From positions 1,033 to 65,032 of the forward strand of contig JAZKAJ010000011.1 in NCBI GenBank assembly GCA_040389185.1: a DNA stretch of 64,000 nucleotides. The letters are read 5' to 3'. Under the pieces are notes generated by a model that saw nothing but the letters and a program-made list of their open reading frames with translations, did no database searches and was not told where the DNA came from. Positions 5,686 through 52,682 of this stretch are shown one piece after another (the stretch's first letter is position 1; each line of letters starts with the position of its first letter). Made by a program: the position numbers and the translations under genes. Origin of the DNA: Patescibacteria group bacterium. GTDB taxonomy: Bacteria; Patescibacteriota; Minisyncoccia; Phycocordibacterales; CAIRYW01.

Positions 5686-8079
5686 ATGGCCACTAAATCT
5701 AAAAAAGACACAAAAACCCTCGTCCTCCTCGATGTTCACGCGATTATTCATCGTGCGTATCATGCCCTTCCAGATTTTGCTTCGAGCAAAGGTGAGCCAA
5801 CAGGTGCACTCTATGGGCTTTGCCTCATGCTCTTTAAACTTATTGAAGATTTCAAGCCGGACTATATCGCTGCTTGTTTTGATCTTCCGAAGCCCACTTA
5901 TAGACACCTAGCATACGACGGGTACAAAGCGGGACGAAAGAAAACTGATGATGAACTCGTCTCACAGCTTATTCGTTCGCGAGAAGTGTTTCGTGCATTT
6001 TCAATTCCAGAATACGACAAAGAAGGATTCGAAGCTGATGATATGCTCGGAACTATTGTTGAACAGATGAAAGATGAGAAGGGAATCGAGATTGTGATTG
6101 CATCAGGAGATATGGATACAATGCAGCTCATTGAAGGTGATCGGGTCAAAGTGTTTACTCTTCGCAAAGGTGTTAAAGACACTGTGACTTATGGCGAGAA
6201 AGAAGTGGTAGAGCGATTTGGATTTAAACCGTTACAGCTCACTGACTATAAAGGACTTCGAGGAGATACATCAGATAATATTATAGGGATCAAAGGTATT
6301 GGAGAAAAGACTGCAACAACGCTCATTCAAGAATTTGGAACGATAGAAAATATGTATGCAAAAATTGAAGCCGGCAAGAAAGAAGAATTCAAAAAGATCG
6401 GAGTGACTGAGAGAATTTACGAACTTCTCGCAAACAACAAAGACGAAGCGGTGTTTTCAAAAATGCTTGCGACAATTCGTCGTGATGCGCCAATCGATTT
6501 CAAACTCCCTGACTCAACCTGGAGAGAACATATTGAGACAGAAAAGGTCAAAAACATGTTGAAATCATTCGATTTTCGAAGCATGGTGCCACGAGTTGAT
6601 GTGGTATTCGGAGATACGAGCTTAGAAGCTGAGGAGCTTAGAAGCTTAGAAGGAAAAACAAAAAAACAGGAGGAGGTTGCTCATAATTTATCTGATGAAG
6701 AAATTGAGAAACTAAAGATTGCAACATTTGTTTTGAATTCAACAATCAGTAATCCGGAACTTTCTGATGTGATCGCCTTTTCTGAACACGAGGATGCAGA
6801 TGAGGCCAAGAAAAATATTTTAAATGAAATCAAAAAGAAGGGTCTTGAATTTGTATACGAAAAGATCGAACTTCCGCTCATTCCGATTATCAAAAAAATG
6901 CATGATATTGGTGTAGCTATTGATGCTGACTATCTCAAAAAGCTCGCTAAGGACTATCATAAAGAACTCGACAAAATAGACAAGAAAATATTTGAACATG
7001 CAGGACACGAGTTCAATGTTGATTCACCAAAGCAGCTCGGTGTTGTGCTTTATGATGAATTGAATCTCGTCGGCAAGAACATGAAAAAGACCGCGGGTGG
7101 TGCGAAGTCGACCAAAGAAAGTGAACTCGAAAAACTTAAAGACTTACACCCGATCATTTCACTCATCATGGAACATAGAGAGCTCGCAAAACTTCTGGGC
7201 ACCTATATCGATGTGATCCCAACACTTCTTGATGATAATGGACGACTCCATCCAACATTCATTCAGACAGGTGCTGCGACAGGGAGAATGGCTTCAAAGG
7301 ATCCTGGAGTACAAAATATTCCAATTAAAACAGAGCTCGGACGAGCGATCAGAAATGCATTCATAGCAGAAAAAGGATTCAAGCTTTGTGCCTTTGACTA
7401 CTCACAGATCGAGCTTCGAATCGCGGCAATACTTTCTGACGATCAAAAACTCCAAGAGATTTTCAAAAGTGGAGAAGATGTTCATTCAGGAGTAGCATCA
7501 CAAGTCTTTGGAGTACCGATAGAGGAAGTAACTAAAGATATGCGACGAAAAGCGAAGGTGATTAACTTCGGGATCCTTTATGGAATGGGAGTAAATGCGC
7601 TCAAAAGTAATCTCGGAAGTACTCGAGAAGAGGCGCAGAGATTCTATGATGATTACTTCAAAACATTCTCGACTCTCGCAGAATATCTCGAAAACACCAA
7701 GAAAGAGGCTGCCAAAAACGGTTTTGTTACAACGATGTATGGAAGAAGAAGATATTTTGAAGGTATCAAATCCCACCTTCCGTTTATCCGTGCCGCTGCA
7801 GAGCGAATGGCTATCAATGCGCCGATACAGGGGACACAGGCAGATATTGTAAAACTCGCAATGACTGAGATAGATCGGATTTATGGGGATGATAAAGATG
7901 TGAGACTTCTCCTTCAAATTCACGACGAGCTTATCTATGAGATTAAAGAAAGTAAGGTGAAGGAGGTGTCAGAAAAAATAAAAAGTGTGATGGAAAACAT
8001 AATGGATCCAAAGATGACAAAAGGTGTGCCTATCGTAGCCAATGCATCATGTGGAGATGATTGGGGAAACTTGAGGTAA
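5686..8079 (+). CDS. polA: DNA polymerase I (5' nuclease plus family A polymerase domain; short or absent 3'-5' exonuclease region)
   Basis: 797 aa. N-terminal 5'-3' exonuclease motifs (LLDVHAIIHRAYHA, GIKGIGEKTA); polymerase motifs DYSQIELRI, RRKAKVINFGILYG and QIHDELIYE. Confidence 0.9.
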   Translation: MATKSKKDTKTLVLLDVHAIIHRAYHALPDFASSKGEPTGALYGLCLMLFKLIEDFKPDYIAACFDLPKPTYRHLAYDGYKAGRKKTDDELVSQLIRSREVFRAFSIPEYDKEGFEADDMLGTIVEQMKDEKGIEIVIASGDMDTMQLIEGDRVKVFTLRKGVKDTVTYGEKEVVERFGFKPLQLTDYKGLRGDTSDNIIGIKGIGEKTATTLIQEFGTIENMYAKIEAGKKEEFKKIGVTERIYELLANNKDEAVFSKMLATIRRDAPIDFKLPDSTWREHIETEKVKNMLKSFDFRSMVPRVDVVFGDTSLEAEELRSLEGKTKKQEEVAHNLSDEEIEKLKIATFVLNSTISNPELSDVIAFSEHEDADEAKKNILNEIKKKGLEFVYEKIELPLIPIIKKMHDIGVAIDADYLKKLAKDYHKELDKIDKKIFEHAGHEFNVDSPKQLGVVLYDELNLVGKNMKKTAGGAKSTKESELEKLKDLHPIISLIMEHRELAKLLGTYIDVIPTLLDDNGRLHPTFIQTGAATGRMASKDPGVQNIPIKTELGRAIRNAFIAEKGFKLCAFDYSQIELRIAAILSDDQKLQEIFKSGEDVHSGVASQVFGVPIEEVTKDMRRKAKVINFGILYGMGVNALKSNLGSTREEAQRFYDDYFKTFSTLAEYLENTKKEAAKNGFVTTMYGRRRYFEGIKSHLPFIRAAAERMAINAPIQGTQADIVKLAMTEIDRIYGDDKDVRLLLQIHDELIYEIKESKVKEVSEKIKSVMENIMDPKMTKGVPIVANASCGDDWGNLR

Positions 8080-8888: not shown

Positions 8889-8903
8889 ACCTAATAAATA
8901 TTT

Positions 8904-11069: not shown

Positions 11070-11264
11070 TCATCCAGTTGGACCGCGAGTACGCTTATCG
11101 AACCTTACAGGTTCAGTACACCTTTTGGTGATTTTGTTTCGTTCCTCACAAAATCAGCTCAAAAGGTTTTCGATTCCAACACGCAAGTGCCCCACACTTG
11201 CTTGGACGCACAAAAATACAAAAACCTCAGACGTTGGACGTCTGAGGTTTTTGTATTTTTGTGC
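11070..11264 (+). repeat. tRNA 3'-half mimic structured element, type-2 copy D (partner tRNA-Lys), ending in a 26-bp perfect hairpin/terminator
   Basis: The conserved block gttggaccgcgagtacgcttatcgaaccttacaggttcagtacaccttttgg is shared with 52770-52823 in the opposite orientation. ggttttcgattccaac matches the tRNA-Lys T-arm and ttggacgcac matches the tRNA-Lys acceptor 3' strand. The hairpin gcacaaaaatacaaaaacctcagacg/cgtctgaggtttttgtatttttgtgc spans 11208-11264. Confidence 0.6.
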
Positions 11265-11388
11265 CCCAACTCAGTCTCGGAATATAGGTAATGAGACCAT
11301 GTAAGGGTTCTTTGAGTGATTTCGATATAGAAAATTTAACCCAGTCGGTCGGGGTTTTGTTTTTTCAAAATGAGACAAATGAGACAGT

Positions 11389-12183
11389 TCAAGACTTTTT
11401 CTTGCGTTTCATTTTCACACGTTTTTTTGCTTCCCTGCGAGCATATCGGTTTTCCAATCTCTTCTTCTCCTCAGCTTCACGCTCTGCCATTTCCTCAGGT
11501 GACACAACTCTCATGTGTTCCATGATTCGATATCCTTTAAGATGTTCGAATGGATCAACAAATCTGTACCAAGGTTCAGAATGATACCAAGTTTCTCCAT
11601 TCCTATCTTCTTTTACCATATACGATTTCACCATTTTCCTTTGCGGTAAGAAATCTTTGTTATCTTTTATTAAAAAGATATGGCAATGAACTCGGCTACC
11701 ATCCATAACCGTTCTTGGTTTGATGATTCCTGCTTCGATCCATTCTTTTAGTTTCTTTTTGTTCACATTAAAATCACTTTCCATGTCATATTCTGAATAC
11801 CGATTGTCTCTATTCTTTGCAATGGAAGGAAGGATTTCTTTTCTATTTATTGCTTTCTGGCATATAGAACATTTGATTCCATATTGGTCATACCAGTTTT
11901 CATTTTCCTGAGTTGAGTTACCGCAGATTGCACAACTGTATCCTCGACTTTCTAATATATACCCTTTAGGAAATTCTCTAAGTTTGTTTTTTCTTCTTCG
12001 ATCTTCTAGTGCAAATTCATAAATTAAGTTTGCATACCTTCCAAGATTAGCAAAAGCTTCCTCAGCTTCATCCCAAGTAACTTCTTTGCCACCTTCTCTC
12101 TCCATAATATTCTTCATCTCCTGAACATGTTCTTCGTGAGACTTACTCATATTATAATTATAACTCCATAATATTTTTTTCAT
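11389..12183 (-). CDS. hypothetical zinc-finger protein with lysine/arginine-rich C-terminal tail
   Basis: 264 aa; CxxC...CxxC (CAICGNS...CSICQK); C-terminus EKKRLENRYARREAKKRVKMKRKKKS. TGAGACAG motifs lie at both ends of the gene. Confidence 0.45.
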   Translation of the reverse strand: MKKILWSYNYNMSKSHEEHVQEMKNIMEREGGKEVTWDEAEEAFANLGRYANLIYEFALEDRRRKNKLREFPKGYILESRGYSCAICGNSTQENENWYDQYGIKCSICQKAINRKEILPSIAKNRDNRYSEYDMESDFNVNKKKLKEWIEAGIIKPRTVMDGSRVHCHIFLIKDNKDFLPQRKMVKSYMVKEDRNGETWYHSEPWYRFVDPFEHLKGYRIMEHMRVVSPEEMAEREAEEKKRLENRYARREAKKRVKMKRKKKS

Positions 12184-12344
12184 AAATGAGACAGTCTATG
12201 TGAGTAGTTTAAATCTGAGCTCGTAAAAATCATCTTATTTCATAAGATGATTTAATTGAATTGAACCTATAAATAAAAAATAATTTTACTTAGTTTGACT
12301 TTGATGTCGGAACAGCTAGTATTACCCCGGAAGCGCTCGAGTGA

Positions 12345-13721
12345 GTGCTAAACTCGCTCCTTGAGAGCAAAACAAACAGAAACACGACTATGATATCTAA
12401 CCTTAGAGGTCAGTCAAAACTGCGTTGCATGCAATGTGGGGCAGTTGTGCCCTTGTATGGAACAGTGCAGTTCACCTGCGGAAAATGCGGTGGATTGTAT
12501 GATGTCGAACATGAGTTCGGTCACATCACAAAAGGAGGACCCGATTATTGGAAAACAATCTTCGACGTTCGCACAAAACCATCGGGCAACGTCCTGTATT
12601 CCTCTGGGGTGTGGCGGTTCCATGAACTCATCATGCCCTCTCTCGATCCACAGGAAATTGTGTCGCTTGGCGAAGGTGTGTTCCAGATACTTTCTGCGGG
12701 CAAAAAGGTTCGTGACTGGGTCGGTGGCAACACCGATTTGTGGATCGTTCCTGAAGGTCTCACTCAAACTGGTTCCTTCAAGGATCACGGTGGCACAGTT
12801 GCCATGAGTGTTGCGAAAGCAATGGGCATCAAAACCATAGCTTGTGCATCCACTGGCGACACATCCGCAATGGCAGCCGCATACGCCGCCGCAGCAGGAT
12901 TGAAGTGTGTTGTTGTCTTGCCTGCGGGTAAGGTCACCAATGTGCAACTCGCTCAACCTGTCGCTCATGGTGCACGAATCATTACGATCCCCGGATCGTT
13001 TGATGACTGCATGCGCGTCGTTCGGGAACTCTGCGAAGCAGGCAGGGTTTTTCCAATCAACAGCATCAATCCGACGCGAATCGAAGGTCATCAAGCAACC
13101 GTCTTCCTTATGGCACAGTTCCTCCAATGGCAACTACCTGATGTGTTTGTGGTTCCTGTCGGTAACGGCAGCAACTCCTCATCCATCGGCAAAGCCATCC
13201 GTCTCCTCAAACAACTCGGTCTCGTCGCAGACAAGGAATGCAAGATTATCGGTGTCCAATCCGACTCTGCAAATCCGTTGGCGACAAGTTGGGAAAGTGT
13301 TCAAAGACTGGGACGGGTTGATATTGAGAAATGGCGCTCGGTCTATCAGCCGCGGAAAGACCTCGGAGAAACAGCTGCTACAGCGGCACGGATCGGAAAT
13401 CCGGTTTCTTGGGCCAAAGTCATGCGCGAAATCTGTGCCTCCGATGGTGCGGTGCTTACAGTGACTGAAGCTGAGCTTCTCGAAGCAACCCGAACACTCG
13501 GATCTTCTGGATTCTCTGGCTGTCCGCAAACTGGGACAGCTCTCGCGGGTCTCCGGCAAGCGATTGCTCGTGGATTCGTTAAACCAGGTGCGACGGTGTC
13601 GTTGGTGTCAACGGCAACCTCACTTAAGTTCCCTGATGTGGCGATGGAGTTTGGGGGTGACTTGATCACAAGTGCAGGGTCTTGCGACACTGAGGATATC
13701 GCGAGTATCATGGGAATCTGA
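12345..13721 (+). CDS. thrC: threonine synthase-like PLP enzyme with N-terminal zinc ribbon; markedly higher GC than surrounding DNA
   Basis: Zn ribbon CMQCG...CGKCG, PLP-lysine motif TGSFKDHGGT, glycine-rich loop VPVGNGSN. Local GC is visibly about 50-55% against roughly 35-40% elsewhere, and several long ORFs on other frames overlap it, as expected for high GC. The start may be the internal ATG at 12390. Confidence 0.7.
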   Translation: MLNSLLESKTNRNTTMISNLRGQSKLRCMQCGAVVPLYGTVQFTCGKCGGLYDVEHEFGHITKGGPDYWKTIFDVRTKPSGNVLYSSGVWRFHELIMPSLDPQEIVSLGEGVFQILSAGKKVRDWVGGNTDLWIVPEGLTQTGSFKDHGGTVAMSVAKAMGIKTIACASTGDTSAMAAAYAAAAGLKCVVVLPAGKVTNVQLAQPVAHGARIITIPGSFDDCMRVVRELCEAGRVFPINSINPTRIEGHQATVFLMAQFLQWQLPDVFVVPVGNGSNSSSIGKAIRLLKQLGLVADKECKIIGVQSDSANPLATSWESVQRLGRVDIEKWRSVYQPRKDLGETAATAARIGNPVSWAKVMREICASDGAVLTVTEAELLEATRTLGSSGFSGCPQTGTALAGLRQAIARGFVKPGATVSLVSTATSLKFPDVAMEFGGDLITSAGSCDTEDIASIMGI

Positions 13722-13742
13722 TGGAGTGCTCTGACGACAATG

Positions 13743-13777
13743 GGGAGGTGGTGCTTACGGGCCCACCTCCTTTTTTA
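13743..13777 (+). terminator. intrinsic terminator
   Basis: ggaggtgg-tgcttacgggc-ccacctcc followed by TTTTTT directly after the thrC-like stop. Confidence 0.6.
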
Positions 13778-14125
13778 TTTAAATTCCTTATCCGCAGTTC
13801 TAAACATAATAACCATCATTATAATAAATGCTACACCGATAGATATTGCAATTCCTTTTTCTGTAGAAGTTGAGACATCAAGTGCAAATTGAAATATAGC
13901 TATAATCATTTGAACGATAGCAAAGAATGCAATGACTTTTGAAAATTTTTTGTTTGATGCATCTAAATCAACCATTGTTTTGTTTGTCCTCAGTGTTGCC
14001 TTTATCTGAAGCTCATTCATCTTCATTTGTTGTTTAGAAAAAGCAATCCCTGTAGAAATTTCTCCAATAGAATCGAGTGCGTCTAATATATCTTTATCTT
14101 CGGGTAAATATTGTTCTTTTTTCAT
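13775..14125 (-). CDS. hypothetical small membrane protein
   Basis: 116-aa ORF with two C-terminal TM helices. Confidence 0.35.
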   Translation of the reverse strand: MKKEQYLPEDKDILDALDSIGEISTGIAFSKQQMKMNELQIKATLRTNKTMVDLDASNKKFSKVIAFFAIVQMIIAIFQFALDVSTSTEKGIAISIGVAFIIMMVIMFRTADKEFK

Positions 14126-14373
14126 AAATTATATTGTAACATTTTGAGCTTTTATGGAAAATTTCAATTTACTTTTTTCTGTCCATAAATACCCTTATTT
14201 CCCAACACATTTTCGTGTGGATAAATTTACGAGATTCCCACAAAACGCATTTTGAATATATTAGAATGATGTTAAGGAAGAGGAGTTGTGAAATTACAAG
14301 AGTGTTAGTTTAAAGAACATTCCTGTAACTTTAGAAGCCTTCCTACAAATTAATAGTTAGTAAAAATAAAAGA

Positions 14374-15720
14374 ATGAAAAAACTTGATGAAAAGTTGGTT
14401 GTTAAGTATGTCCAAATTTCTGAGATTAAGCCCTCAGAATATAATCCACGAAAGTGGGATGCGGAACAGAAGGAATCGCTTAAGCAAAGTCTTACTCAAT
14501 TCGGTATAGTTGATCCACTGGTTTGTAATAGTGCAGAAGGGAGAATGAATATTCTCCTTGGTGGTCACTTCAGATTGGAAGTGTTGAAGGAACTTGAATA
14601 TAAAGAAGTTCCAGTGGTTTACATCAATATCTCAGATATTGAAAAAGAGAAGGAACTCAATATCAGATTAAACAAGAATACGGGAGAATTCGATTTAGAT
14701 CTGTTGGCAGAATTTGATGAGGCACTCCTTTCTAATATTGGATTTGATTCAGAAGAACTCGATACCATCTTCAACAATGATGAGGACGAAGAGGAACAAT
14801 TTGATCTCAAGAAAGAACTAGAGAAACTTAATATCAATGAAATCAAAGTAAAGAAGGGTGACGTATATGAACTCGATGGATCAAGACTTATGTGTGGCGA
14901 CAGCACGATTGAAGAAGATATGCTTTCCCTTATGGGTGAGCATAAGGCAGACATGGTAATGACTGATCCGCCATATATTCTTGATTACCTGCATGGTAAG
15001 ACAAGGCACGGAGAAGCAACAGAAGGGTTTGGATCAAAGAAAAACAGAAGATATCTTGAGACAGATGTTTTGCCTGATAACTTCACAGAACTTTGGATGG
15101 GAAATATACAAAAAATACAGAAAGAAAACTTTCATATTGTTTGCTACGAGAACTGGAAGAATATTCGTACTATCTGGAACGAGATGGAGAAGCATTGGAA
15201 AGTCCGCAATATGATTGTCTGGCATCTTCCTAATCGTGTACAGGGATATTCAGGAAAGTACAAACTCTTTAACAAGTACGATATTGCCATGGTTGGTACG
15301 ACTGAAGACGAAGTGAATCTCAACACTGAAAAGGAGGATGAGATTGTTGATAACGAGTATGAGACAGCACTCTATGCAACATCAGGATCACCACATTGGG
15401 AAAGTTACGGAGCTGGTAAGAAGATTTGTCCAACTGATTTTATTGAGTTTAAAGCCGCGGATGAGAAATCTTCAGGACAAGGAATCATCTTCGGTACAAA
15501 ACCGCTTGAGATCCTTATGCCTTACATAAAGATACTAACAGAGAGGGATGATCTTGTAGTAGAGCCTTTTGGTGGAAGTGGGTCGACATTAATAGCATCC
15601 ATCAAAATGAAAAGAAGATGCTTTCTTATGGAGAAATCTCCAGTCTATGTTGAGGTAATCCTTCGAAGATGGAGAATACAGACTGGTAAGGAGCCGGTAA
15701 AAATTTATGAGAGAGCATAA
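14374..15720 (+). CDS. ParB-like nuclease domain fused to a beta-class N6-adenine/N4-cytosine DNA methyltransferase
   Basis: The N-terminal ParB/Srx-like region (VQISEIKPSEYNPRKWD...GGHFRLEVL) precedes catalytic motif IV DPPY, which in turn precedes SAM motif I FGGSGST. That order (IV before I) marks the beta class. Such fusions are typical of phage or island orphan methyltransferases. Confidence 0.8.
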   Translation: MKKLDEKLVVKYVQISEIKPSEYNPRKWDAEQKESLKQSLTQFGIVDPLVCNSAEGRMNILLGGHFRLEVLKELEYKEVPVVYINISDIEKEKELNIRLNKNTGEFDLDLLAEFDEALLSNIGFDSEELDTIFNNDEDEEEQFDLKKELEKLNINEIKVKKGDVYELDGSRLMCGDSTIEEDMLSLMGEHKADMVMTDPPYILDYLHGKTRHGEATEGFGSKKNRRYLETDVLPDNFTELWMGNIQKIQKENFHIVCYENWKNIRTIWNEMEKHWKVRNMIVWHLPNRVQGYSGKYKLFNKYDIAMVGTTEDEVNLNTEKEDEIVDNEYETALYATSGSPHWESYGAGKKICPTDFIEFKAADEKSSGQGIIFGTKPLEILMPYIKILTERDDLVVEPFGGSGSTLIASIKMKRRCFLMEKSPVYVEVILRRWRIQTGKEPVKIYERA

Positions 15721-16096
15721 AGAAGATAAGATAAGATTTCTTGAGGAACTGCAGAAGATAGGAAATGTATGGACTGCGTGTGGAAGAATTAAGATTCCAA
15801 GATCGACAATATATCGTTGGTTAAAGACTGATCCAGAATTTAATGAATTGGCCCGAAAAGCAATGAAAATCGGTCGAATCAGCCTAAGTGAAATGACAGA
15901 GGGTGTAGTAATTAAGAAAGCTATTGTAGAAAAAGATTTGAAAGCTTCAATGTATATTCTGAGCCACAATCATCCTAGGTATATAAAACGAGAGCCACTG
16001 CCACCTAAAGATGAAAATCAGGCAATGAATTTGGCTGATCTAATTAAGAAGAGTATAAAAAAGGATGGAACGAATGAGGATTCTTTCGGACTGTGA
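15707..16096 (+). CDS. HTH-domain protein (phage terminase small-subunit-like or regulator)
   Basis: 129 aa; helix-turn-helix IPRSTIYRWLKTDPEF; overlaps the methyltransferase stop by 14 nt (translational coupling). Confidence 0.35.
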   Translation: MREHKEDKIRFLEELQKIGNVWTACGRIKIPRSTIYRWLKTDPEFNELARKAMKIGRISLSEMTEGVVIKKAIVEKDLKASMYILSHNHPRYIKREPLPPKDENQAMNLADLIKKSIKKDGTNEDSFGL

Positions 16097-16158
16097 TTAA
16101 TTACAGATCTTTATTTAAAAGAACCAGTAGTTCATACTACTGGTTCTTTTAAATAAAT

Positions 16159-16806
16159 TTACTTCACTATCGAACATCCATTCACAAGCACATTACCAAG
16201 CTTTCCAGAGAGCTCACCTTTAAGAGTTAATCGATCTCCCTTGGATACTGTTGCCAATTGAGTCTCATCAGCTTTTGAGAACATACACTGAACATTCTCA
16301 AAAGAATACTGGCTTCCGTCGGTAAGTGAAATGTATGGAGTATCAACAATGTCTTTGCCAATGGTATCAACAAGGCCTGACACTTCGACAATATTGTTCT
16401 TGTACTTTGCATCAGCAGAAACTTCATTTGCTTTGTAGTCAGCAAGAAGTTTTGTTGCTGTTACTTTGATTGCTGGTTGTTCTGGTACTGGCACAGACAC
16501 ACTTTTATCTGTTACTACTGACGGCATAACATTACTTGATGAAGTTGTACCTATTATCACAAAGAGTACTAAGACAAGAAAGACTTTCAATCCTCGAGAA
16601 AGATTGATATGTAATTTCTCCTTTATTAATTTGTTACTCGGTGGCAATACAATGATTGCGATAAGGAGAAACAAAATTCCTGAGAGAGGCTTAGTAAAAA
16701 TTGTACTTACTGCTGTAAGTAACATGACTACACCAAATACCCAAGAGAATACAGAACCTAGAGTTATGTTTTTAGTCTTAACTGAAGACTGGTTGTTGTT
16801 TTCCAT
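16159..16806 (-). CDS. membrane-anchored OB-fold protein (tRNA_anti-like / BOF-type domain)
   Basis: 215 aa; N-terminal TM, then YKANEVSADAKYKNNIVEVSGLVD...GDRLTLKGELSG typical of OB-fold anticodon-binding-like domains. Confidence 0.4.
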   Translation of the reverse strand: MENNNQSSVKTKNITLGSVFSWVFGVVMLLTAVSTIFTKPLSGILFLLIAIIVLPPSNKLIKEKLHINLSRGLKVFLVLVLFVIIGTTSSSNVMPSVVTDKSVSVPVPEQPAIKVTATKLLADYKANEVSADAKYKNNIVEVSGLVDTIGKDIVDTPYISLTDGSQYSFENVQCMFSKADETQLATVSKGDRLTLKGELSGKLGNVLVNGCSIVK

Positions 16807-17070
16807 TGTAGCGAGTTTTTATAACATGACAGGTAGACAAAAAGCCCTCCGCCATGGCGATGGTCCGAAGACCACCCACATCCGTTTCCAGATATGACTC
16901 GCTACAAGTACCCTGACGAAGGGTTTTTTATCTTGTAGCGAGCTTTTCGACCATATCCTTTAAAACTTTTAAGGGTTTCAAAGGGGTTAGGTCTCTTATT
17001 AAGTTGTACTAAACAATAATACCAAGATTATAGGTATTAGTCAGTACCTTAGCTCGGATTAGGAATTTTA

Positions 17071-17091
17071 GGTAATCGAGTTACCAACAGC
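17071..17091. promoter_or_regulatory. candidate recombinase half-site GGTAA-tcgag-TTACCAACAG (shares an 11-mer with 18505-18515)
   Basis: gttaccaacag at 17080-17090 is identical to 18505-18515; small inverted repeat ggtaa/ttacc. Confidence 0.3.
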
Positions 17092-17478
17092 TTAGAATTG
17101 TGCTTTTTGACCCCAATTACCATCATCCCAGGCGGGTTTATCCGTTCCTGTGATATGAAATTCTCCATCATCCATCATTTCGCCGTAATAGACAGTGCCT
17201 GGTAGCCAGGCGGTTTCTCCAAGAAATTCTGATATAGCTTCTCCAGACTTCTGATAAACATAATTTATAATATTGTCTCCAGAATAATCACGAACATGAG
17301 TGTAAGGCATTACAGGGTTTGGAATTCCCATAAGAAAAAGGGTTGTCTTTTCTTTACCTGTCACTTCTTTTAATTCTGATCGTAGAAGAAACCGCAATCC
17401 TGTTCCAAGATACTCACCAGTACTCAACATATAACTTTTACTTGCAGTTTTAATTTCTGTTTCTTTATTCTCACTCAT
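17092..17478 (-). CDS. hypothetical protein
   Basis: 128-aa ORF; no recognisable motif. Confidence 0.35.
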   Translation of the reverse strand: MSENKETEIKTASKSYMLSTGEYLGTGLRFLLRSELKEVTGKEKTTLFLMGIPNPVMPYTHVRDYSGDNIINYVYQKSGEAISEFLGETAWLPGTVYYGEMMDDGEFHITGTDKPAWDDGNWGQKAQF

Positions 17479-17516
17479 TGTTTAATGATATTTAATATCG
17501 GTTAAATTGATAATGG

Positions 17517-17894
17517 TTATTTTTTAAGCTTCAATATCTGTGCCCAGCCTTTCTCATGAATGTCCTTTGCAAGAATAACTAATCGTCCCGCAAAAAAAGC
17601 AACACCCATACCCAAGACAGATAAACAAAGACCCGAAGCGAATGGATTTGTAAGTAAATTTGATAGACGTGGGTCAAGTTTTTCTAATCCACCATAAGCA
17701 GCAATCAGGGCGATTCCCCAGAATGCACTAAATCCTATATATTCGAATTCACTAAGTTTTTTATCCAAGTTTACTGTTTTCCTGTAAGACCACACAGTTA
17801 TAAAACCTGTGAAGATAATATAGAAGTAAACATATGCGTCATCTGTTGGATTCATATTTTTTAATTTTCTAATAATTATGACCCGTTCCTCCAA
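17517..17894 (-). CDS. hypothetical membrane protein
   Basis: 125 aa, three hydrophobic helices. Confidence 0.35.
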   Translation of the reverse strand: MEERVIIIRKLKNMNPTDDAYVYFYIIFTGFITVWSYRKTVNLDKKLSEFEYIGFSAFWGIALIAAYGGLEKLDPRLSNLLTNPFASGLCLSVLGMGVAFFAGRLVILAKDIHEKGWAQILKLKK

Positions 17895-17918
17895 ATTAAG
17901 GAGGAACGGGTTCTGTCA

Positions 17919-18203
17919 CTATCTCGCTGGAACTAAATCACCACACCAAGCTGTATATTGTAAGACAAGAATATTTGATGTCTTACCTGTACTGTTGGAT
18001 GACGTCTTTGCAAGAATGTGGACCTGCTGACAAGTTGCTGTAGTGTTTAGGGTGTATTCGGCAGTCGGAAGACTGTATCGAGCACCGTTACCTGCAGTGA
18101 TTGTCTTAACGAATCCTGCACGCTGCATTGCAGTATGAAGGATGTTATAATCGTTAGGATAGATAGCGTTGTGCAATTCTACTCTGATAAAGTATGAATT
18201 CAT
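17919..18203 (-). CDS. hypothetical small protein
   Basis: 94 aa (FIRVELHNAIYPNDYNILHTAMQRAGF...); first gene of a three-gene minus-strand block. Confidence 0.35.
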   Translation of the reverse strand: MNSYFIRVELHNAIYPNDYNILHTAMQRAGFVKTITAGNGARYSLPTAEYTLNTTATCQQVHILAKTSSNSTGKTSNILVLQYTAWCGDLVPAR

Positions 18204-18241
18204 TTTGTTTTCTAAGATTGGTTAATAAAATCGACCGTTAA

Positions 18242-18275
18242 CAAAAAGCGATGACCCCTCGGTCATCGCTTTTTG
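18242..18275. terminator. bidirectional intrinsic terminator
   Basis: aagcgatgacc-cctc-ggtcatcgctt flanked by AAAAA and TTTTT. Confidence 0.55.
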
Positions 18276-18483
18276 TATGGAATTTTTTTAGAGTAAATAA
18301 CTACTTATGATTCTATAATTTTAGTGATGATCGAAGGCTGTGAAGTTTGTTGTTTTGTTATGTTATGTTTTTTGCCTTCGAGATTGATGTCTCGTACGAA
18401 TATTGATCTATGTAGTTTTCAATGAACTTAACGATAATATATCACTATTTTTTATTTGCACAAACCGGGTAAAGTTTATATCC

Positions 18484-18515
18484 CTGTTGGTAAATTGGGG
18501 ATAAGTTACCAACAG
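18484..18515. promoter_or_regulatory. 32-bp imperfect palindrome CTGTTGGTAA-N12-GTTACCAACAG, candidate serine-recombinase site
   Basis: Perfect 10-bp inverted arms; lies about 30 nt upstream of the recombinase ORF; 11-mer shared with 17080-17090. Confidence 0.45.
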
Positions 18516-18541
18516 TCCAACCTGGACTCTCAAGAGGGGTT

Positions 18542-19879
18542 GTGTCATTCATTGAGTATATGAGTAGCGCAACAAATGCACCATTAGGAACAACAGCTAA
18601 AATAGTAATACCTGTAAAGGTGAAATACTGTCTTTACGCTAGAAAAAGCACAGAATCGGAAGAAGCTCAGATTCTTTCGATTGATAGCCAAATAAGGGAA
18701 ATGCAACAAATGGCAGACAGGGAGTGTTTGGAGATAGTTGAAATAAAGAGAGAATCACACTCCGCCAAAGAAGCAGGACAACGACCTGTGTTTAATGAGA
18801 TTGTAGAAGAAATTAAACTTGGAAAATTTAATGGAATTCTGACTTGGGCGGCAGATAGAATAAGTCGTAATGCGGGGGATCTTGGAAGAATTGTAGATCT
18901 AATGGATGCTGAGAAGCTTCATGATATTAGAACCTATAGCCAAAGATTCACCAACAATCCCAATGAGAAATTTCTTCTTATGATTCTTGGCTCACAAGCA
19001 AAGCTTGAGAATGACAATAAGGTGTTGAATGTAAAAAGAGGACTTAAAGCACGGTGTGAGATGGGACTCTGGCCTTGTGTACCGCCGACTGGATATTTAA
19101 GAAACAAGAATGTTGATAATAAATGTTTACCTGAAATAGATTCATATAGAGGAGCAATAATTAAGAAATGTTTTGAAAAAATAGCTTATGAAAAATGGTC
19201 AGGTAGAAAAGTATATAAATGGTTAAGAGACGAAGTAAACTTTAAAACAAAGACAGGTAAAATATATACTTTGAGCAATCTATATCTTACGTTACGGAAT
19301 CACTTCTATTACGGCACTTTTGAATATCCAAAAGACAGCGGTCATTGGTATACAGGTAAACATACACCCCTCATAACCAAAGAGTTGTTTGATAAGGTAC
19401 AGGAAGGAATAAGTAATTACAATGATCGAAACGAACACAAGGAATTCGCTTTTACAAAGATAATGTCTTGCGGACTGTGTGGATCTGGGATTACTGCTGA
19501 TGAGAAATTTAAGAAACTGGCGAATGGCAGTGTTCAGAGATATGTGTATTATGGTTGCACAAGATTTAATGATCGTGATTGTAAATCAGGATGGATCAAT
19601 GAAGTTGATCTTATAGAACAATTAGCTAATCTAATGGGCAATATTGATCTCGATGAAATTGGCATGAAGGAAAAGATAAAAGAAGAAATAGAACGACATA
19701 AGAAGTTTAGTTTGGGGCTACTAGGCGAAAAAGCTAAAGTAATTAAGACAACTGATATTGATATTCGAAATTATGCCAAATATGTTCTCCGCGACGGTGC
19801 CTCATGGGAGAAAAGAGAGTTATTGGGATGCTTAAGAAGTAAGATTTCCCTAAATGCAAAAAAGATAGAGATTCACTAA
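18542..19879 (+). CDS. large serine recombinase (resolvase catalytic domain plus recombinase domain plus zinc ribbon)
   Basis: Catalytic-serine motif CLYARKSTESEE; GDLGRIVDLMD and LLMILGSQAKLENDN regions; C-terminal Cys cluster CGLCGSG...YYGC. The true start is probably the ATG at 18560. Confidence 0.85.
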   Translation: MSFIEYMSSATNAPLGTTAKIVIPVKVKYCLYARKSTESEEAQILSIDSQIREMQQMADRECLEIVEIKRESHSAKEAGQRPVFNEIVEEIKLGKFNGILTWAADRISRNAGDLGRIVDLMDAEKLHDIRTYSQRFTNNPNEKFLLMILGSQAKLENDNKVLNVKRGLKARCEMGLWPCVPPTGYLRNKNVDNKCLPEIDSYRGAIIKKCFEKIAYEKWSGRKVYKWLRDEVNFKTKTGKIYTLSNLYLTLRNHFYYGTFEYPKDSGHWYTGKHTPLITKELFDKVQEGISNYNDRNEHKEFAFTKIMSCGLCGSGITADEKFKKLANGSVQRYVYYGCTRFNDRDCKSGWINEVDLIEQLANLMGNIDLDEIGMKEKIKEEIERHKKFSLGLLGEKAKVIKTTDIDIRNYAKYVLRDGASWEKRELLGCLRSKISLNAKKIEIH

Positions 19880-19888
19880 GCCGGTAAG

Positions 19889-20128
19889 CTATTCCATTGC
19901 ATTCTTTTTGATTCTATACCATTCTCTTACATCAAGTTGTAAATAATCTTTACAGTCCAAAAGAATTTTAGATAACTCTTTATGTCTATACATATCTTCT
20001 AGCGGTGGCGCTGGTCGAATATCTCGTCGAATATTGGAATCCCTATCATAAACTTGAAACGCATAATTTATTGTGGTATCAATTTTTTTATACTCTTCAT
20101 AAAGCTTTAAGTATTCTTTTTCTTCCAT
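19889..20128 (-). CDS. hypothetical small protein (third gene of the nuclease operon)
   Basis: 79 aa; 17-nt gap from the upstream gene on the same strand. Confidence 0.4.
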   Translation of the reverse strand: MEEKEYLKLYEEYKKIDTTINYAFQVYDRDSNIRRDIRPAPPLEDMYRHKELSKILLDCKDYLQLDVREWYRIKKNAME

Positions 20129-20145
20129 GCAATTTATGTTATTGA

Positions 20146-20463
20146 TTATTTAATCGAATAAGCGAACTGAAGCATGCCGTTTGTTTGCGGATAAAAATCA
20201 AATAAAGTCTCAAAATTATCTTGATTTTCAGATGTCTGGAATTTGACATACTTTAAATTGGTCTTTTCTTCAAACCACTTTTTTAAAACTTCATCAACCT
20301 TTATATCTTTTGTTTGCTTCTTGAAGAGTCTGGATAGAAATACTATGTCAGCACAAACAATAATTTTACATAAAATACTACCATTATCGTCTTCAATAAA
20401 ACTCCTTTGCCAAAAAACATCAGCATGCCAATCCTCTTTAATATTTCCTAGAATTAATTTCAC
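20146..20463 (-). CDS. hypothetical small protein (second gene of the nuclease operon)
   Basis: 105 aa; its start overlaps the upstream gene's stop by 4 nt (ATGA), implying translational coupling. Confidence 0.4.
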   Translation of the reverse strand: MKLILGNIKEDWHADVFWQRSFIEDDNGSILCKIIVCADIVFLSRLFKKQTKDIKVDEVLKKWFEEKTNLKYVKFQTSENQDNFETLFDFYPQTNGMLQFAYSIK

Positions 20464-21683
20464 AGTTTTGATCTTAAATTTTTAAGGTTTTCGAGTAATT
20501 CATCATAGAGAATGAAGTTTATATTTTTCAATGATGATCCAAGCTTCCTGAAATCAGCTGACTCTTTTTTATTTTTGAACTGCTTGCTTGTACCAGCAAT
20601 AATATATCCTCGCGGTCTTACCACCTGTATATCAATACCTTTTTTATTTTTTACAGCACGAATATATGCGTCAGAATTATGAACGATCTCATCAGTGTAA
20701 TTTTCTATTTGAGCAATAGCCATTGAAACATCCGGCTTCCAATAATAATTATCATGATCTTTATCAAAACTAAGCAATGAAACATCATGTTTCTTTATTT
20801 CAAAAACATCAACAAATCCATATACATCCACTAATACGAAGTCGGGGTAGCTAACACTAATACTTACATTTTGTTTTTCAATTGCAGTGACATAATTGGC
20901 CATAAATCGAAACACCTTTTCACTAAGAAATTTTTGCCAATCATTTTCGGAAATGCTTTTTTTAGCCAAATTTGCCTCAAACTCTTTAATAACTTCATCA
21001 AGATAAATTCTATCTGTAGTAGTTTTAGCGCTTTTAATTAGTGTAGCGCGCCCATTTTTTATTCCTCGTTTTTTACCTTTAAGAGAACCTTCAAATATTT
21101 TCGGGAAGAAGTTATTAAGCGACTCAAGATCCTCCTCATTTAGCCTTTGAGCTACTTTCTTACGTCGTAAGAGAGCAGCAATCTCACCTGCCTTATACTC
21201 ATCAAAATCGTCAGTAGAAATCTTTATGTCTTTTGGAAACTTAGTACTTAAAAAAGATGCTACAGCACTTCGTAACTCATTATTACTGTCTTCGTTAATA
21301 CGACCAAGTTTAATAAGAAGATTTTTTATGTCTAAAAGCGGCAGAACAACAGAAACCTTATGCTTTCCTTTATGAACCTTCTTTGTCTTCTTGGAAACAA
21401 TAAGTTCAAGAACTTTGGATCCCGCTAAATGCTCCTTCAGAGCAGTAAGGAGGAAAATTCCTTTTTTTCCAAAACCATAACCTTTTTTATTAAGATAAAG
21501 TCCTGAAGGAAGACCTTGATAACCTTCGAGAGTAATACTTGATACTTGTTTTGATTTTGCAGGTTGTAAATAGTAGATGGTCTTATCTGATTTAGGATAT
21601 ACCTCATATACACAAAAGTCAGGTTTATCAGACGCATAATGACGTTCTGGAATTTCAATCTTTTTATCTTTTTTTGCAACCAT
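20460..21683 (-). CDS. PD-(D/E)xK nuclease-domain protein, Shedu (DUF4263)-like or RecB/Cas4-like C-terminal domain, lysine-rich N-terminal region
   Basis: 407 aa. The C-terminal region shows the ordered motifs YPDFVLVD, then DVFEIKK ((D/E)xK), then AIAQIENY (QxxxY), as in RecB-family and Shedu-type nucleases. The N-terminal 280 aa are K-rich with no recognised domain. The Shedu assignment is made from motifs only. Confidence 0.5.
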   Translation of the reverse strand: MVAKKDKKIEIPERHYASDKPDFCVYEVYPKSDKTIYYLQPAKSKQVSSITLEGYQGLPSGLYLNKKGYGFGKKGIFLLTALKEHLAGSKVLELIVSKKTKKVHKGKHKVSVVLPLLDIKNLLIKLGRINEDSNNELRSAVASFLSTKFPKDIKISTDDFDEYKAGEIAALLRRKKVAQRLNEEDLESLNNFFPKIFEGSLKGKKRGIKNGRATLIKSAKTTTDRIYLDEVIKEFEANLAKKSISENDWQKFLSEKVFRFMANYVTAIEKQNVSISVSYPDFVLVDVYGFVDVFEIKKHDVSLLSFDKDHDNYYWKPDVSMAIAQIENYTDEIVHNSDAYIRAVKNKKGIDIQVVRPRGYIIAGTSKQFKNKKESADFRKLGSSLKNINFILYDELLENLKNLRSKL

Positions 21684-21790
21684 ATATAAGCTACTTTATA
21701 CCATAAAAATAGCCCAATTTCATTGGTTAAAATAACTTAAACTATAGACTATGTTGGACTTGACCCAACTTAGTAGGTCTCACATGTGGG

Positions 21791-21863
21791 TGCGTCCAGT
21801 TGGAATCGAACCAACGACCGTCTCCTTAAAAGGGAGCTGCTCTACCGACTGAGCTATGGACGC
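21791..21863 (-). tRNA. tRNA-Lys (anticodon UUU)
   Basis: Cloverleaf: acceptor GCGTCCA/TGGACGC; D-arm GCTC-AGTCGGTA-GAGC; anticodon loop CTTTTAA; T-arm GTTGG-TTCGATT-CCAAC. CCA is not encoded. Confidence 0.85.
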
Positions 21864-21924
21864 AATACGTGAAAATATATCAGAAAATCAGAAAAAGTCC
21901 ACTTTCACGAGTGAGTAGTTCTTA

Positions 21925-23408: not shown

Positions 23409-23451
23409 AAATAAATAACAATCTCACGATCGTGAGATTGTTATTTATTTT
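23408..23451. terminator. 44-bp perfect palindrome (bidirectional terminator-like), copy 1
   Basis: aaaataaataacaatctcac-gatc-gtgagattgttatttatttt; near-identical second copy at 23954-23995. Confidence 0.6.
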
Positions 23452-23472: not shown

Positions 23473-23958
23473 ATGTCACTCATACTTGATATATTGGAGG
23501 AGTTGTCGAATGTGGAAATACGTTACAAAGGAGGTGTTGGGATCAATCTTTTTGGTATGCCGAGATTCGAGTCTCAAAATAAACAGTCTTTGAAATCTAG
23601 TTTTTATAGATTAAGTCGGGGTGGTTATATTGAAAAAGAGGCTAGCGGATGGAGGTTAACGGAAACCGGTAAAAAATATTTAAAATCTGACCATTCAAAC
23701 TATAAGACTTTTTCATCACCTTTTAAAAAAGAAAGTCCTAAAAATCTTATTGTAATATTCGATATACCAGAAGAGCGCAGGTCAGAAAGAGACTGGTTTA
23801 GAAGTCATCTAAGAAGATTTGATTATTTGATGATTCAAAGGAGTGTGTGGGTAGGGCCCTCTCCGTTGCCGAAGGAATTTCAGGACTATCTTAAGAAGTT
23901 AAAATTAAAATCCTGCTTAAAGACCTTTAAACTTTCTAAAAGTTATAAGGCTAAATAA
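23473..23958 (+). CDS. winged-helix domain protein with a C-terminal Cas2-like motif
   Basis: 161 aa. N-terminal wHTH-like region (YRLSRGGYIEKEASGWRLTETGKKYL). C-terminal LIVIFDIPEERRSERDWFRSHLRRFDYLMIQRSVWVG resembles the Cas2/PaaX-C core (beta1 xDIP...RR...L...G..RIQ.SVW). Confidence 0.35.
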   Translation: MSLILDILEELSNVEIRYKGGVGINLFGMPRFESQNKQSLKSSFYRLSRGGYIEKEASGWRLTETGKKYLKSDHSNYKTFSSPFKKESPKNLIVIFDIPEERRSERDWFRSHLRRFDYLMIQRSVWVGPSPLPKEFQDYLKKLKLKSCLKTFKLSKSYKAK

Positions 23959-23995
23959 AATAACAACTTCACGATCGTGAAGTTGTTATTTTATT
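23954..23995. terminator. 42-bp perfect palindrome, copy 2
   Basis: aataaaataacaacttcac-gatc-gtgaagttgttattttatt; same tcacgatcgtga core as copy 1, with arm substitutions that preserve pairing. Confidence 0.6.
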
Positions 23996-29446: not shown

Positions 29447-29479
29447 ATATTTCATTTTTATTTTTGCTATAATATCTAG

Positions 29480-43603: not shown

Positions 43604-44278
43604 ATGAAAAAAACATTGAGCACGTCTGCACTGGTAACCGCAGACAGTCCGAAAGAACAGAGAGCTACCAAAAAGTCCCGTTATACCCTGGCTCAATCAA
43701 TTCTCGGTGTGGATTTCATCACGCCAGAAGAGGTAGCCAAGGCTCGCGGGGCAATCTACACTGACGAGCAGATCAAGGCACTCGCCGAAAGTCTGCCGTC
43801 GGAAGACATGCTGAAGTGGTGCAAGGAAAATGGTTACGCCGTCATGCCCGCACCGCCCCAAGCGATGTCGTTGCTTGACGTTCGTAGTATCAAGTCCGAC
43901 CACTTCTACAACAAGACTGGGTGGCGGTATGCCGACCAGAAGTTTGCCCGTGAGGACAAGACGTCGTTCGGATGGCTTGCCATCAAGAAGACGCCAGTCT
44001 CGAACTCAGCTAGCAAAAACTGGGATGAGCAAAGCAAGCTCCTGTCCGCACTCGAGAAGGTGCCGAACGCTGCCGAAATGAGCTGGTTCATCACGACCTA
44101 CTTTGAGGTTCGTGGTGTCCGACTCTTCGAAGGTGTTTACGTTCGGACGTCCAGTCTCGACTCGGACGGCAACCACGTCCTCGTCGGCGGCTTTGACTCC
44201 GAGGGTCTCGGCGTCGACCGCTACTGGGCCAACGACCGCCACGACGTCCTTGGTGTCTCGGCCAGCAGGAAGCAGTGA
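43604..44278 (+). CDS. hypothetical protein encoded in a high-GC (foreign-looking) segment
   Basis: 224-aa ORF; GC visibly above 55% with many overlapping alternative-frame ORFs; no recognised motif. Confidence 0.4.
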   Translation: MKKTLSTSALVTADSPKEQRATKKSRYTLAQSILGVDFITPEEVAKARGAIYTDEQIKALAESLPSEDMLKWCKENGYAVMPAPPQAMSLLDVRSIKSDHFYNKTGWRYADQKFAREDKTSFGWLAIKKTPVSNSASKNWDEQSKLLSALEKVPNAAEMSWFITTYFEVRGVRLFEGVYVRTSSLDSDGNHVLVGGFDSEGLGVDRYWANDRHDVLGVSASRKQ

Positions 44279-46040: not shown

Positions 46041-46266
46041 TGGGTGAGGCGAGAGTTTCGACCTCGACTAAATTTTTCTACCCGAAAAATTTGTCTGGTC
46101 ACCAGCTCACACCGCCGATGAGCTCATCGGCGACTACGCTTCGCTTCGTGTGTTCCGCTGTTCGAATCTCGCCTGTTTTTCGGAGAAAAACCAAGTTGCT
46201 TCGCAACTTGCCTCCGCCAATAAGAAAAAACACCTGCATCTGCACGGTGTTTTTTCTTATTGGCGG
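46041..46266 (+). repeat. tRNA 3'-half mimic structured element, type-1 copy A (partner tRNA-Ser)
   Basis: Its 5' end tgggtgaggcgagagtttcgac is antisense-like to the tRNA-Ser 3' end. The core is cgactaaatttttc-taccc-gaaaaatttgtctggtcaccagctcac, followed by the perfect hairpin cgccgatgagctcatcggcg. Sense T-arm/acceptor copy ccgctgttcgaatctcgcc and acceptor end cctccgcca follow. A 21-bp perfect hairpin closes the element at 46214-46266. Confidence 0.6.
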
Positions 46267-46534
46267 GCCACTGGAGTTAAGTGATAGAGGACTCAAGTGT
46301 CATAAGGATATTCTAGGATTTTTACAGAGAATATTCGAGGCACTTGAGTCTAAGGTGGACTTTCTATAAAATGAGACAACTGAGACAGTTTTGAGAGGTT
46401 TGAAATACGCGCATTGTAAAATTGAAAATTCGTGGTATTGTTTTCGCGTTAGTCTAACCGTTCGACAGTATCTAAAGAACTGTCTCATGGTAAGACAGTT
46501 CTTCGATATCTAACGAATCAACCTCTCGTAACCT

Positions 46535-47038
46535 ATGAAAACACCGATTACCGCCGGCCGCGTCTTTTCGCAGCTCTCTTATACAACCATCATCAAAGTC
46601 ATTGCTGCACTTACTGTGATGCACAATTCTGAGAAAGAGTGCAGGGGTGGAATCCTTGCTATTCTGGTGCAAGGACCAGAAGGAAGCACCCTCGAATCTC
46701 GCGAACTCGGAGCCCCGGGAGAAAAGGCATTTGATTCTGCCTATTTCGCCCACGAAAAAATCCGTCGCCTCGCCACTCGTCGCCTGACTGCGGGAAGCGA
46801 AGGGGAATATGCATCTTCGCAAAGTGCAGATCCTGAGAAGGGTCAGTACGGCGGCTGCGTCGTGTCGTGGCACGGGAAGTATGAAATCTTTATCTCATTC
46901 TCGGGAGCACCCGCTGTCGTGGATGAGGTCGTCACTTATGTCGTCGCTGAAGCCCTCGGGTTCACGGTTTCGACTGAGTATCAGAACGATCTTCTTCCGC
47001 AAGCTCGCGCACTACTCGAGCGTTGTCGCAGGCCATGA
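46535..47038 (+). CDS. hypothetical protein in a second high-GC segment
   Basis: 167-aa ORF; visibly high GC; preceded by (T)GAGACAG motifs at 46372-46392 and 46485-46505. Confidence 0.4.
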   Translation: MKTPITAGRVFSQLSYTTIIKVIAALTVMHNSEKECRGGILAILVQGPEGSTLESRELGAPGEKAFDSAYFAHEKIRRLATRRLTAGSEGEYASSQSADPEKGQYGGCVVSWHGKYEIFISFSGAPAVVDEVVTYVVAEALGFTVSTEYQNDLLPQARALLERCRRP

Positions 47039-47107
47039 AATAAGGCAAGTGTCGTTGATATCCCACGTGGAGTCCTGAGCAATCGGGACTCCATTTTTAT
47101 TTTTTTA

Positions 47108-47431
47108 TTAGAATTTTCTTGTTTCGAGAGGGAATAAATCGTATGCAATTTCTTCGTATGGGTGACTTGCTCGGAGTGCTTTTAATACTTCATCAACTTT
47201 ATCTGCATCAATCTGACATTCAATTCTTTCTTCCTCCACCTCTTCAAATTTTCCGACTTCACCGATTGCTGGTGTTGCACCTGTTTCAGGCTTGAATCTT
47301 CCTATGCCTCGTGTACTGAAACTGCAGAATGAATAGTTGGGATATGTGCCTGCACCAGCTTTGCCGATAGCTTGGCGAACAGTGTCTGCGTGGGAGAGGG
47401 GAACTGTGAAGACGAGTTTGTATTTGGGCAT
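47108..47431 (-). CDS. conserved hypothetical small protein (alpha/beta, about 107 aa)
   Basis: MPKYKLVFTVPLSHADTVRQAIGKAGAG...HPYEEIAYDLFPLE; a frameshifted paralogous fragment lies at 44478-44605. Confidence 0.45.
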   Translation of the reverse strand: MPKYKLVFTVPLSHADTVRQAIGKAGAGTYPNYSFCSFSTRGIGRFKPETGATPAIGEVGKFEEVEEERIECQIDADKVDEVLKALRASHPYEEIAYDLFPLETRKF

Positions 47432-47435
47432 AGGG

Positions 47436-52569: not shown

Positions 52570-52682
52570 CAAAGATAAACAAAAAGCCCTATCGTTTTTC
52601 AACAATAAGGCTCTTATAAATTTGGATTACGATTTACAAAATCTAATCCATAGAATCAAATATCTGAGATTTTTTATATGTT

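Follow-up and report, generated by a model that had tools for sequence, protein, structure and literature searches.

Contig JAZKAJ010000011.1 of a Patescibacteria group bacterium (assembly GCA_040389185.1) contains, in the 64,000-nucleotide stretch analysed here (positions 1,033 to 65,032; hereafter the window), a threonine synthase gene, thrC, that lies in an island at the 3' end of a tRNA-Lys gene and is missing, together with that island, from four related contigs. Our reading, which we hold with a probability of about 0.72, is that the product of the gene is a class I threonine synthase bearing a zinc ribbon at its N-terminus, that this copy is not ancestral but came from another Patescibacterium via, or into, a serine-recombinase island at tRNA-Lys, and that its excess of guanine plus cytosine (GC) has two parts, one due to amino acids and one to synonymous codons. 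Horizontal acquisition is supported by the empty sites and by the discordance between thrC and PolA, not by GC content. Both the enzyme family and this type of mobile island are already known, and the case is real but fairly ordinary. It documents in a Patescibacterium a serine-recombinase island beside tRNA-Lys in which a metabolic gene stands next to phage-derived and defence genes. In AT-rich reduced genomes, moreover, the GC-richness of a gene does not prove by itself that the donor was high in GC; it takes synteny with close relatives to demonstrate transfer.

Empty sites and the origin of thrC

Why do we regard thrC as acquired? The counterparts in relatives of PolA (5686..8079), encoded 4 kb upstream of thrC, are 93, 91, 91 and 83% identical to it, and the relative with the 93% copy is named Candidatus Taylorbacteria. 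Across the related loci (labelled L039/L040, L041, L043 and L049) the order PolA-holB-...-tRNA-Lys-DoxX-SpoU-RluA-Fpg is kept and 11265..21786 is missing; at these empty sites, a hairpin element whose end corresponds to 11264 is joined straight to the 3' end of tRNA-Lys (~21783-21790). Gene and organism also disagree. Assembly JAQBQZ01 (RYN_386) carries the 93% PolA on L039 and, on another contig (L005), a thrC 63% identical to that of the window, and the best thrC match other than the gene itself reaches 70%. That L005 belongs to a related genome is supported by its bearing this lineage's tRNA-flanking repeat. In our reading the host is a Taylorbacteria-like Patescibacterium, and the window thrC is not ancestral to its lineage. 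The only thing known of the date is that acquisition came after the host had diverged from the relatives whose PolA is 83-93% identical. A preliminary description of the sequence had proposed a very recent acquisition from a high-GC donor: acquisition stands, on the empty sites and the discordance, while "very recent" is not datable.

The donor half of that proposal fared worse. Among 5.8 billion proteins, the best 120 matches are 52-70% identical to the thrC protein, and those of them that carry a name are all Patescibacteria (Taylor-, Kaiser-, Azam- and Nealsonbacteria, Paceibacterota). The close homologues being patescibacterial, and the best of them (70%) lying in a 41% GC contig, an unrelated high-GC donor is contradicted. 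In a neighbour-joining tree, the only kind computed, the window thrC groups with L001 (a 41% GC contig) and L005 (39%), both of which are GC-discordant too, and this group is sister to copies from contigs of 51-62% GC. The donor was probably another Patescibacterium of somewhat higher GC, perhaps ~45-50%. The gene may have entered as cargo of the 10.5-kb island or by later insertion into it, and the serine recombinase would have placed the island at the tRNA-Lys 3' end.

How does the island compare with known elements? It resembles tRNA-adjacent integrative and phage-derived islands in its position at a tRNA 3' end, its recombinase, its phage-type genes, its defence gene and its absence from relatives. 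It differs from them in that its candidate integrase is a large serine recombinase, where a tyrosine integrase is usual, and in having no clear attachment (att) direct repeats and no capsid or replication genes. Known phages are further away: the island DNA matches none of them, and the thrC family is absent from IMG/VR. We considered thrC as a phage auxiliary gene and rejected it on these grounds, the matches in GenBank phages being at most 36% identical and to ordinary ThrC/CysM-like proteins.

A mobile and defence context resembling that of the window was found at 9980-19300 of L011, an unrelated Paceibacterota contig of 35% GC whose thrC is 61% identical. The order there is thrC, ParB-methyltransferase, a second methyltransferase, a TerS-like gene, an HNH endonuclease, a reverse transcriptase and a DpnII restriction-modification pair. 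A general linkage of thrC to these island genes was rejected: among the thrC loci compared, L011 alone repeats the order thrC, ParB-methyltransferase, TerS-like, and the 53 metagenome loci searched had no more to offer than one weak ParB match and a pair of distant serine recombinases. Nor are the 264-aa open reading frames (ORFs) that adjoin thrC in the window and in L011 homologous.

Enzyme family and pathway context

The preliminary description placed the gene at 12345-13721. The gene is real, but its start is most likely the ATG at 12390 rather than the GTG at 12345, giving a predicted protein of 443 aa; the ATG is preferred because the N-termini of homologues sit ~10 residues ahead of the first Cys. 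One public call of the gene also gives 443 aa, while the NCBI protein MES2223746.1, of 362 aa, starts from an internal Met and loses the zinc ribbon and the N-terminal domain. Exact-sequence look-ups of P0001 and two flanking window proteins gave no match.

Sequence and structural model both assign the product to the class I (plant-like) threonine synthase family, with a predicted activity of EC 4.2.3.1. The sole Pfam domain is PALP (PF00291, E 4.6e-50, residues 115-407), the domain of fold-type II enzymes that use pyridoxal 5'-phosphate (PLP), and the NCBIfam equivalog TIGR00260 (thrC) is passed at 182.9 bits against a cut-off of 167.1. The closest PDB sequence is Arabidopsis threonine synthase 1e5x (E 6e-67); residue 31 of the query, within its N-terminal region, is the first to be aligned. 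The motifs SFKD, ASTGDTSA, NSxNPxRxEG, GNGSN and STAxxLKF align with those of the plant enzyme; K131 in SFKD, ASTGDTSA (153-160), NSINPTRIEG (224-233) and GNGSN (258-262) match both the Arabidopsis and the Bacillus subtilis enzymes and are invariant in the family. We take Lys131 to be the Schiff-base lysine of fold-type II PLP enzymes, and the motifs presumably bind the substrate and the PLP phosphate as in threonine synthase structures. An AlphaFold (AF2) model built from 25 homologues has a mean confidence (predicted local distance difference test, pLDDT) of 90.6, and the top 21 PDB matches to its fold are all threonine synthases, Arabidopsis 2c2b being best (template modelling (TM) score 0.82, E 1.7e-33) and bacterial class I enzymes coming next. 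Within the zinc-ribbon region, modelled with beta-hairpins at residues 10-13, 19-21 and 36-40, C13, C16, C30 and C33 are invariant or nearly so in 25 homologues (alignment A1). The PALP and TIGR00260 matches, the fold match and the conserved cysteines thus bear out the initial assignment to a PLP-dependent ThrC-family enzyme with an N-terminal CxxC-CxxC zinc ribbon.

Arabidopsis thaliana threonine synthase (1E5X, 2C2B, 2C2G) is the best match in sequence and fold, with GGLLDVEH where the window protein has GGLYDVEH and with an Asp in the ASTGDTSA loop as well. The two differ in that identity is ~31% and in that the four-Cys ribbon of the window protein is N-terminal to the aligned segment; the plant alignment begins past C30 and has a Ser near C33. 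The bacterial class I enzymes (B. subtilis 6CGQ/6NMX, Thermus thermophilus 1UIM/1V7C, Mycobacterium tuberculosis 2D1F, Aquifex aeolicus 2ZSJ) share the catalytic core and motifs, but are ~350 aa long and lack the ~80-residue N-terminal zinc-ribbon extension. The genes of such bacterial enzymes usually stand together with hom and thrB. A rubredoxin-like zinc ribbon at the N-terminus of threonine synthase has already been described (PMC5906684, citing Kaur and Subramanian 2017), and the ribbon of the window protein may be equivalent to it. The example given in PMC5906684 is the Escherichia coli enzyme 1VB3, of class II.

Does the enzyme make threonine? It is predicted to convert O-phospho-L-homoserine, with the help of PLP, to L-threonine and phosphate. 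As the preliminary description had remarked, thrC has no hom or thrB neighbours: neither was found among the scanned window ORFs of at least 250 aa, nor in a Pfam census of the 130 ORFs nearest to thrC across its loci (195 Pfam families), which revealed nothing recurrent. An all-against-all BLAST of the ORFs flanking thrC at 37 loci likewise showed no recurrent neighbour. The searchable literature yielded no discussion of what an orphan threonine synthase does in Patescibacteria, which generally lack amino-acid biosynthesis. In the window, an APH-family small-molecule kinase (58217..59248, +) weakly matches the type II homoserine kinase model PRK05231 (24 bits against 271) and is a candidate for the missing homoserine kinase. 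An APH-family gene was also called near the end of the relative locus L043.

The alternative that survives best, though we consider it unlikely, is that the gene is a ThrC-family paralogue catalysing another reaction in a pathway-less symbiont, such as a phospho-amino-acid lyase, a cysteate-synthase-like enzyme or another beta/gamma-replacement enzyme. It would account for an orphan that lacks conserved neighbours and has neither hom nor thrB in the window, in a group without amino-acid biosynthesis, and the protein does fall short of the cut-offs of two threonine synthase equivalogs, NF006050 (207 against 303) and NF004170 (133 against 421). The TIGR00260 match speaks against it, as do a cysteate synthase score far under its cut-off (61.7 against 324.9) and the retention of all motifs common to structurally characterised threonine synthases. 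A comparison beyond the Patescibacteria bears on it too. The same thrC subfamily occurs in contigs labelled Nitrospirota and Dehalococcoidia, where thrC has a chemotaxis receptor, a homocitrate-synthase-like protein, PrpD and a CoA ligase as neighbours; these metabolic neighbours indicate that the contigs are genuinely not patescibacterial. Between the patescibacterial copies and those of the free-living Nitrospirota and Dehalococcoidia, 139 positions are identically conserved and none is conserved but different, so the sequences carry no sign of a changed function in Patescibacteria. The suggestion of a function other than threonine synthesis finds no sequence support in the window thrC. A well-conserved orphan threonine synthase is widespread in a group thought to lack amino-acid biosynthesis, and the origin of its substrate is a testable question of symbiont metabolism.

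Two components of the GC excess

Why, then, is thrC so rich in GC? ORF 12345..13721 (+) has 52.1% GC (57, 48 and 51% at the three codon positions) in a window of 38.1%. Its GC at third positions (GC3) is 50.8%, a clear outlier from the other 82 ORFs of the window (mean 34%, standard deviation (sd) 7); in a set of 57 ORFs its GC3 ranks third. Of all 1377-nt sliding windows in the 64 kb, the richest begins at 12401 (52.8% GC, ~4.6-5.3 sd over the mean). A two-change-point maximum-likelihood segmentation delimits 12325..13770 at 52.8% GC against 32.2% in the immediate flanks, which fall to 25% at 12101-12300 and 27-31% at 13801-14400. The initial observation that thrC lies far above its surroundings therefore holds, as does that of long spurious ORFs in it, of which there are five on other frames or strands (121-239 aa). 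The claim that nothing around it is as GC-rich needs qualifying: thrC is the most GC-rich gene-sized stretch, but ORFs 43604..44278 (55.7%) and 46535..47038 (53.8%) are GC-rich too.

To divide the excess, each protein was recoded with host codon usage, giving an amino-acid part and a synonymous part. Part of the excess belongs to the family. Where the flanking sequence sufficed for comparison, thrC exceeded it in GC at every locus, 37 from genomes and 53 from metagenomes (90/90), by 7.6 points on average, 8.8 points in low-GC hosts and up to 17. The window thrC has 52.4% GC against 46.3% expected under host codon usage. The amino-acid part amounts to +7.8 points in the window (~56% of the excess) and averages +7.1 in low-GC hosts; Ala makes up 9.9% of residues against 5.7%, Gly 10.8% against 6.3% and Lys 4.7% against 9.0%. 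The synonymous part, +6.1 points, ranks third of 61 loci (family mean +1.5, sd 2.5). From host to thrC, the C-ending share of codons with a third-position pyrimidine (NNY) rises from 0.32 to 0.59; CGN makes up 85% of the arginine codons against 47%, and neither GTA nor TTA occurs. Some 8 of the 14 excess points come from the Ala/Gly/Val-rich, Lys/Asn-poor composition that the enzyme family has everywhere, and the remaining ~6 from codon usage unlike that of the host. Because the family is GC-richer than its flanks everywhere and over half of the excess is driven by amino acids, composition by itself is weak evidence of transfer here, and it does not separate a moderately GC-richer donor from codon selection.

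Several results weigh against our reading as a whole. The synonymous shift is confined to NNY and four- and sixfold codons, the G-ending share of Lys, Glu and Gln codons equalling that of the host (0.31 vs 0.31); such an NNY-limited pattern could reflect codon-choice selection rather than foreign origin, and a small C-ending bias runs through the whole family (+0.078, p 1.4e-4). The donor lineage was not found, no homologue among the 5.8 billion proteins exceeding 70% identity, and the nearest one, in its 41% GC contig, is itself GC-discordant. On the question of entry with the island or later, the island has 35% GC and the cassette 53%. No convincing att direct repeats were seen at the island ends, only a 4-nt GTGC overlap. 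Finally, hom and thrB, which would supply O-phosphohomoserine, were not found among the scanned window ORFs.

Could thrC simply be native? Vertical descent, with GC-richness wholly a property of the gene through its amino acids and selection for C-ending codons, would fit the excess at all 37 genome and 53 metagenome loci, an amino-acid part here (+7.8) close to the low-GC average (+7.1) and the limited codon shift; the GC-rich ORF 43604..44278, moreover, is syntenic in a near-identical relative. It is largely refuted by the empty site in four related contigs, and opposed by thrC identity of 63% where PolA reaches 93% in the same related assembly, by the location of thrC within an island bearing a recombinase and phage genes, and by a synonymous excess in the family's top 5%. 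We judge it quite improbable. As for an assembly or binning chimera, which the sharp GC boundaries at 12325 and 13770 in a metagenome-assembled genome might suggest, we give it hardly any weight, since run SRR26324622, as assembled independently in Logan, shows 100% identity across 11099-16759 (5.66 kb) and reproduces both junctions, host-like AT-rich sequence lies on both sides, and the boundaries match a promoter-proximal leader and a terminator.

Neighbouring features and other GC-rich genes

The features of the island and of thrC are listed in Table 1. The terminator, described as strong from the outset, folds at -24.1 kcal/mol (z -2.2), and 2 of 200 shuffled sequences fold equally well. 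A riboswitch or structured leader 5' of thrC was considered and rejected, with no Rfam match at E up to 1 and a fold no better than that of shuffles (z -0.59).

Table 1. Coordinates of thrC, its signals and the genes of the tRNA-Lys island in the window
Feature	Position	Strand	Basis or remark
Integrative island, ~10.5 kb	11265..21786		Not present in four related contigs; 35.1% GC when the cassette is left out
Hypothetical CxxC protein, divergent from thrC, left island end	11389..12183	-	No Pfam or PHROG match; weak ECs_2282_CxxC match
Putative promoter TTGACT-16-TAGTAT, directly 5' of the cassette	12295..12322	+	Consensus scan 9/12; pattern match only
GC-rich cassette	12325..13770	+	~65-nt leader, thrC coding sequence and terminator hairpin; two-change-point fit
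Threonine synthase family gene, 443 aa, class I, plant-like, N-terminal zinc ribbon	12390..13721	+	Pfam, TIGR00260, Arabidopsis threonine synthase, AF2
N-terminal four-Cys zinc ribbon, C13-x2-C16 ... C30-x2-C33 (CMQC...CGKC)	12426..12488	+	Cysteine conservation
Lys131 codon, SFKD motif, predicted PLP Schiff-base lysine	12780..12782	+	Invariant in 25-homologue alignment A1
Intrinsic terminator, GC-rich hairpin 13742-13772 and U-run	13742..13780	+	Shared with the convergent gene 13775..14125
Small hypothetical protein, 116 aa, convergent on thrC, hydrophobic stretch near C-terminus	13775..14125	-	ORF list; no family match
ParB_N-DNA methyltransferase fusion, phage-type	14374..15720	+	Pfam; phrog_498 E 2e-77; 55-56% identical copies in IMG/VR viral contigs
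Small helix-turn-helix protein, terminase-small-subunit-like (TerS-like)	15707..16096	+	phrog_4044 E 2e-7; weak Sf6_terminase match
tRNA_anti-like OB-fold membrane protein, resembles superinfection-exclusion (Sie) proteins	16159..16806	-	PF12869 E 1e-24; phrog_8545
LOOT RNA (RF03000), between the Sie-like gene and small ORFs	16859..16993	-	Rfam 76.4 bits vs gathering score 46.4
Large serine recombinase, candidate island integrase	18542..19879	+	Pfam Resolvase, Recombinase and Zn_ribbon_recom; PHROG integrase phrog_95 E 3e-56
Shedu (SduA) anti-phage defence nuclease, adjoins tRNA-Lys	20460..21683	-	Pfam SduA_C E 1e-25
tRNA-Lys(UUU), 3' end adjoins the island	21787..21864	-	ARAGORN, Rfam, junction sequences

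Two further GC-rich ORFs deserve mention. ORF 43604..44278 (+), with 55.7% GC and a GC3 of 69%, has 56% GC in a 96.6%-identical relative (L047, 10001-10675). It belongs to a highly conserved family of hypothetical proteins of Patescibacteria, 60-87% identical, with no Pfam domain and a hypervariable C-terminal stretch of ~40 residues. Between the window and the near-identical relative there are 53 differences, distributed 16, 20 and 17 over the codon positions and clustered at residues 92-110 and 172-215. A diversity-generating retroelement is not supported as the cause, no template-repeat copy being found in the window or L011. In L011 the ORF immediately upstream of thrC (8633-9427) is a homologue, and it is GC-rich there too. 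The second, ORF 46535..47038 (53.8% GC, GC3 52%), is one of a small family of 59 representatives with no assigned function, and a GC-rich homologue stands 2.5 kb from thrC in L005. It is contained in a 2.3-kb stretch (46062..48402) that is missing in the near-identical L047 and adjoins tRNA-Ser and the tRNA-flanking repeat.

Might these genes have something in common with thrC? One idea is that the zinc-ribbon threonine synthase belongs to a limited set of orphan genes, all of them persistently rich in GC, that travel between low-GC Patescibacteria and insert near tRNA genes. We regard it as a speculative and doubtful extension of our reading, in which the GC-richness of such genes could be kept by frequent recombination or selection and not stem from recent origin. 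If true, the enzyme could supply these episymbionts with threonine made from O-phosphohomoserine of their hosts, or from homoserine that an unrecognised kinase has phosphorylated. More interesting leads than the window gene itself, in our view, are the occurrence of the family as orphan genes throughout and its persistent GC excess in Patescibacteria.

Several smaller observations concern repeats and indels. A tRNA-adjoining repeat of ~80-190 nt occurs at 11070-11270, 52663-52822, 48415-48494, 60726-60776 and 29423-29449, and also in L005, L041 and L049. The repeat closes with a long, perfectly paired hairpin (arms of 27 nt, 11208-11264), the outer end of which overlaps the tRNA-Lys 3' end in relatives. 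The repeat borders the island on the left and the 2.3-kb indel on the right; its Rfam matches are sub-threshold ones to His_leader only. Directly before the empty tRNA-Lys site of L049, positions 14917-15206 hold a homologue of a small island ORF (17919..18203), with 72% nucleotide identity to window 18055-18356, a hint that insertions recur at this site as a hot spot. Downstream of the island, ORF 23473..23958 (161 aa) lies between two 39-nt palindromic repeats that are 85% identical (23408-23451 and 23953-23995). In L039, 23409..23997 is absent from between SpoU and RluA, with ~45 nt between the matching blocks, which suggests that this segment is a small inserted cassette.

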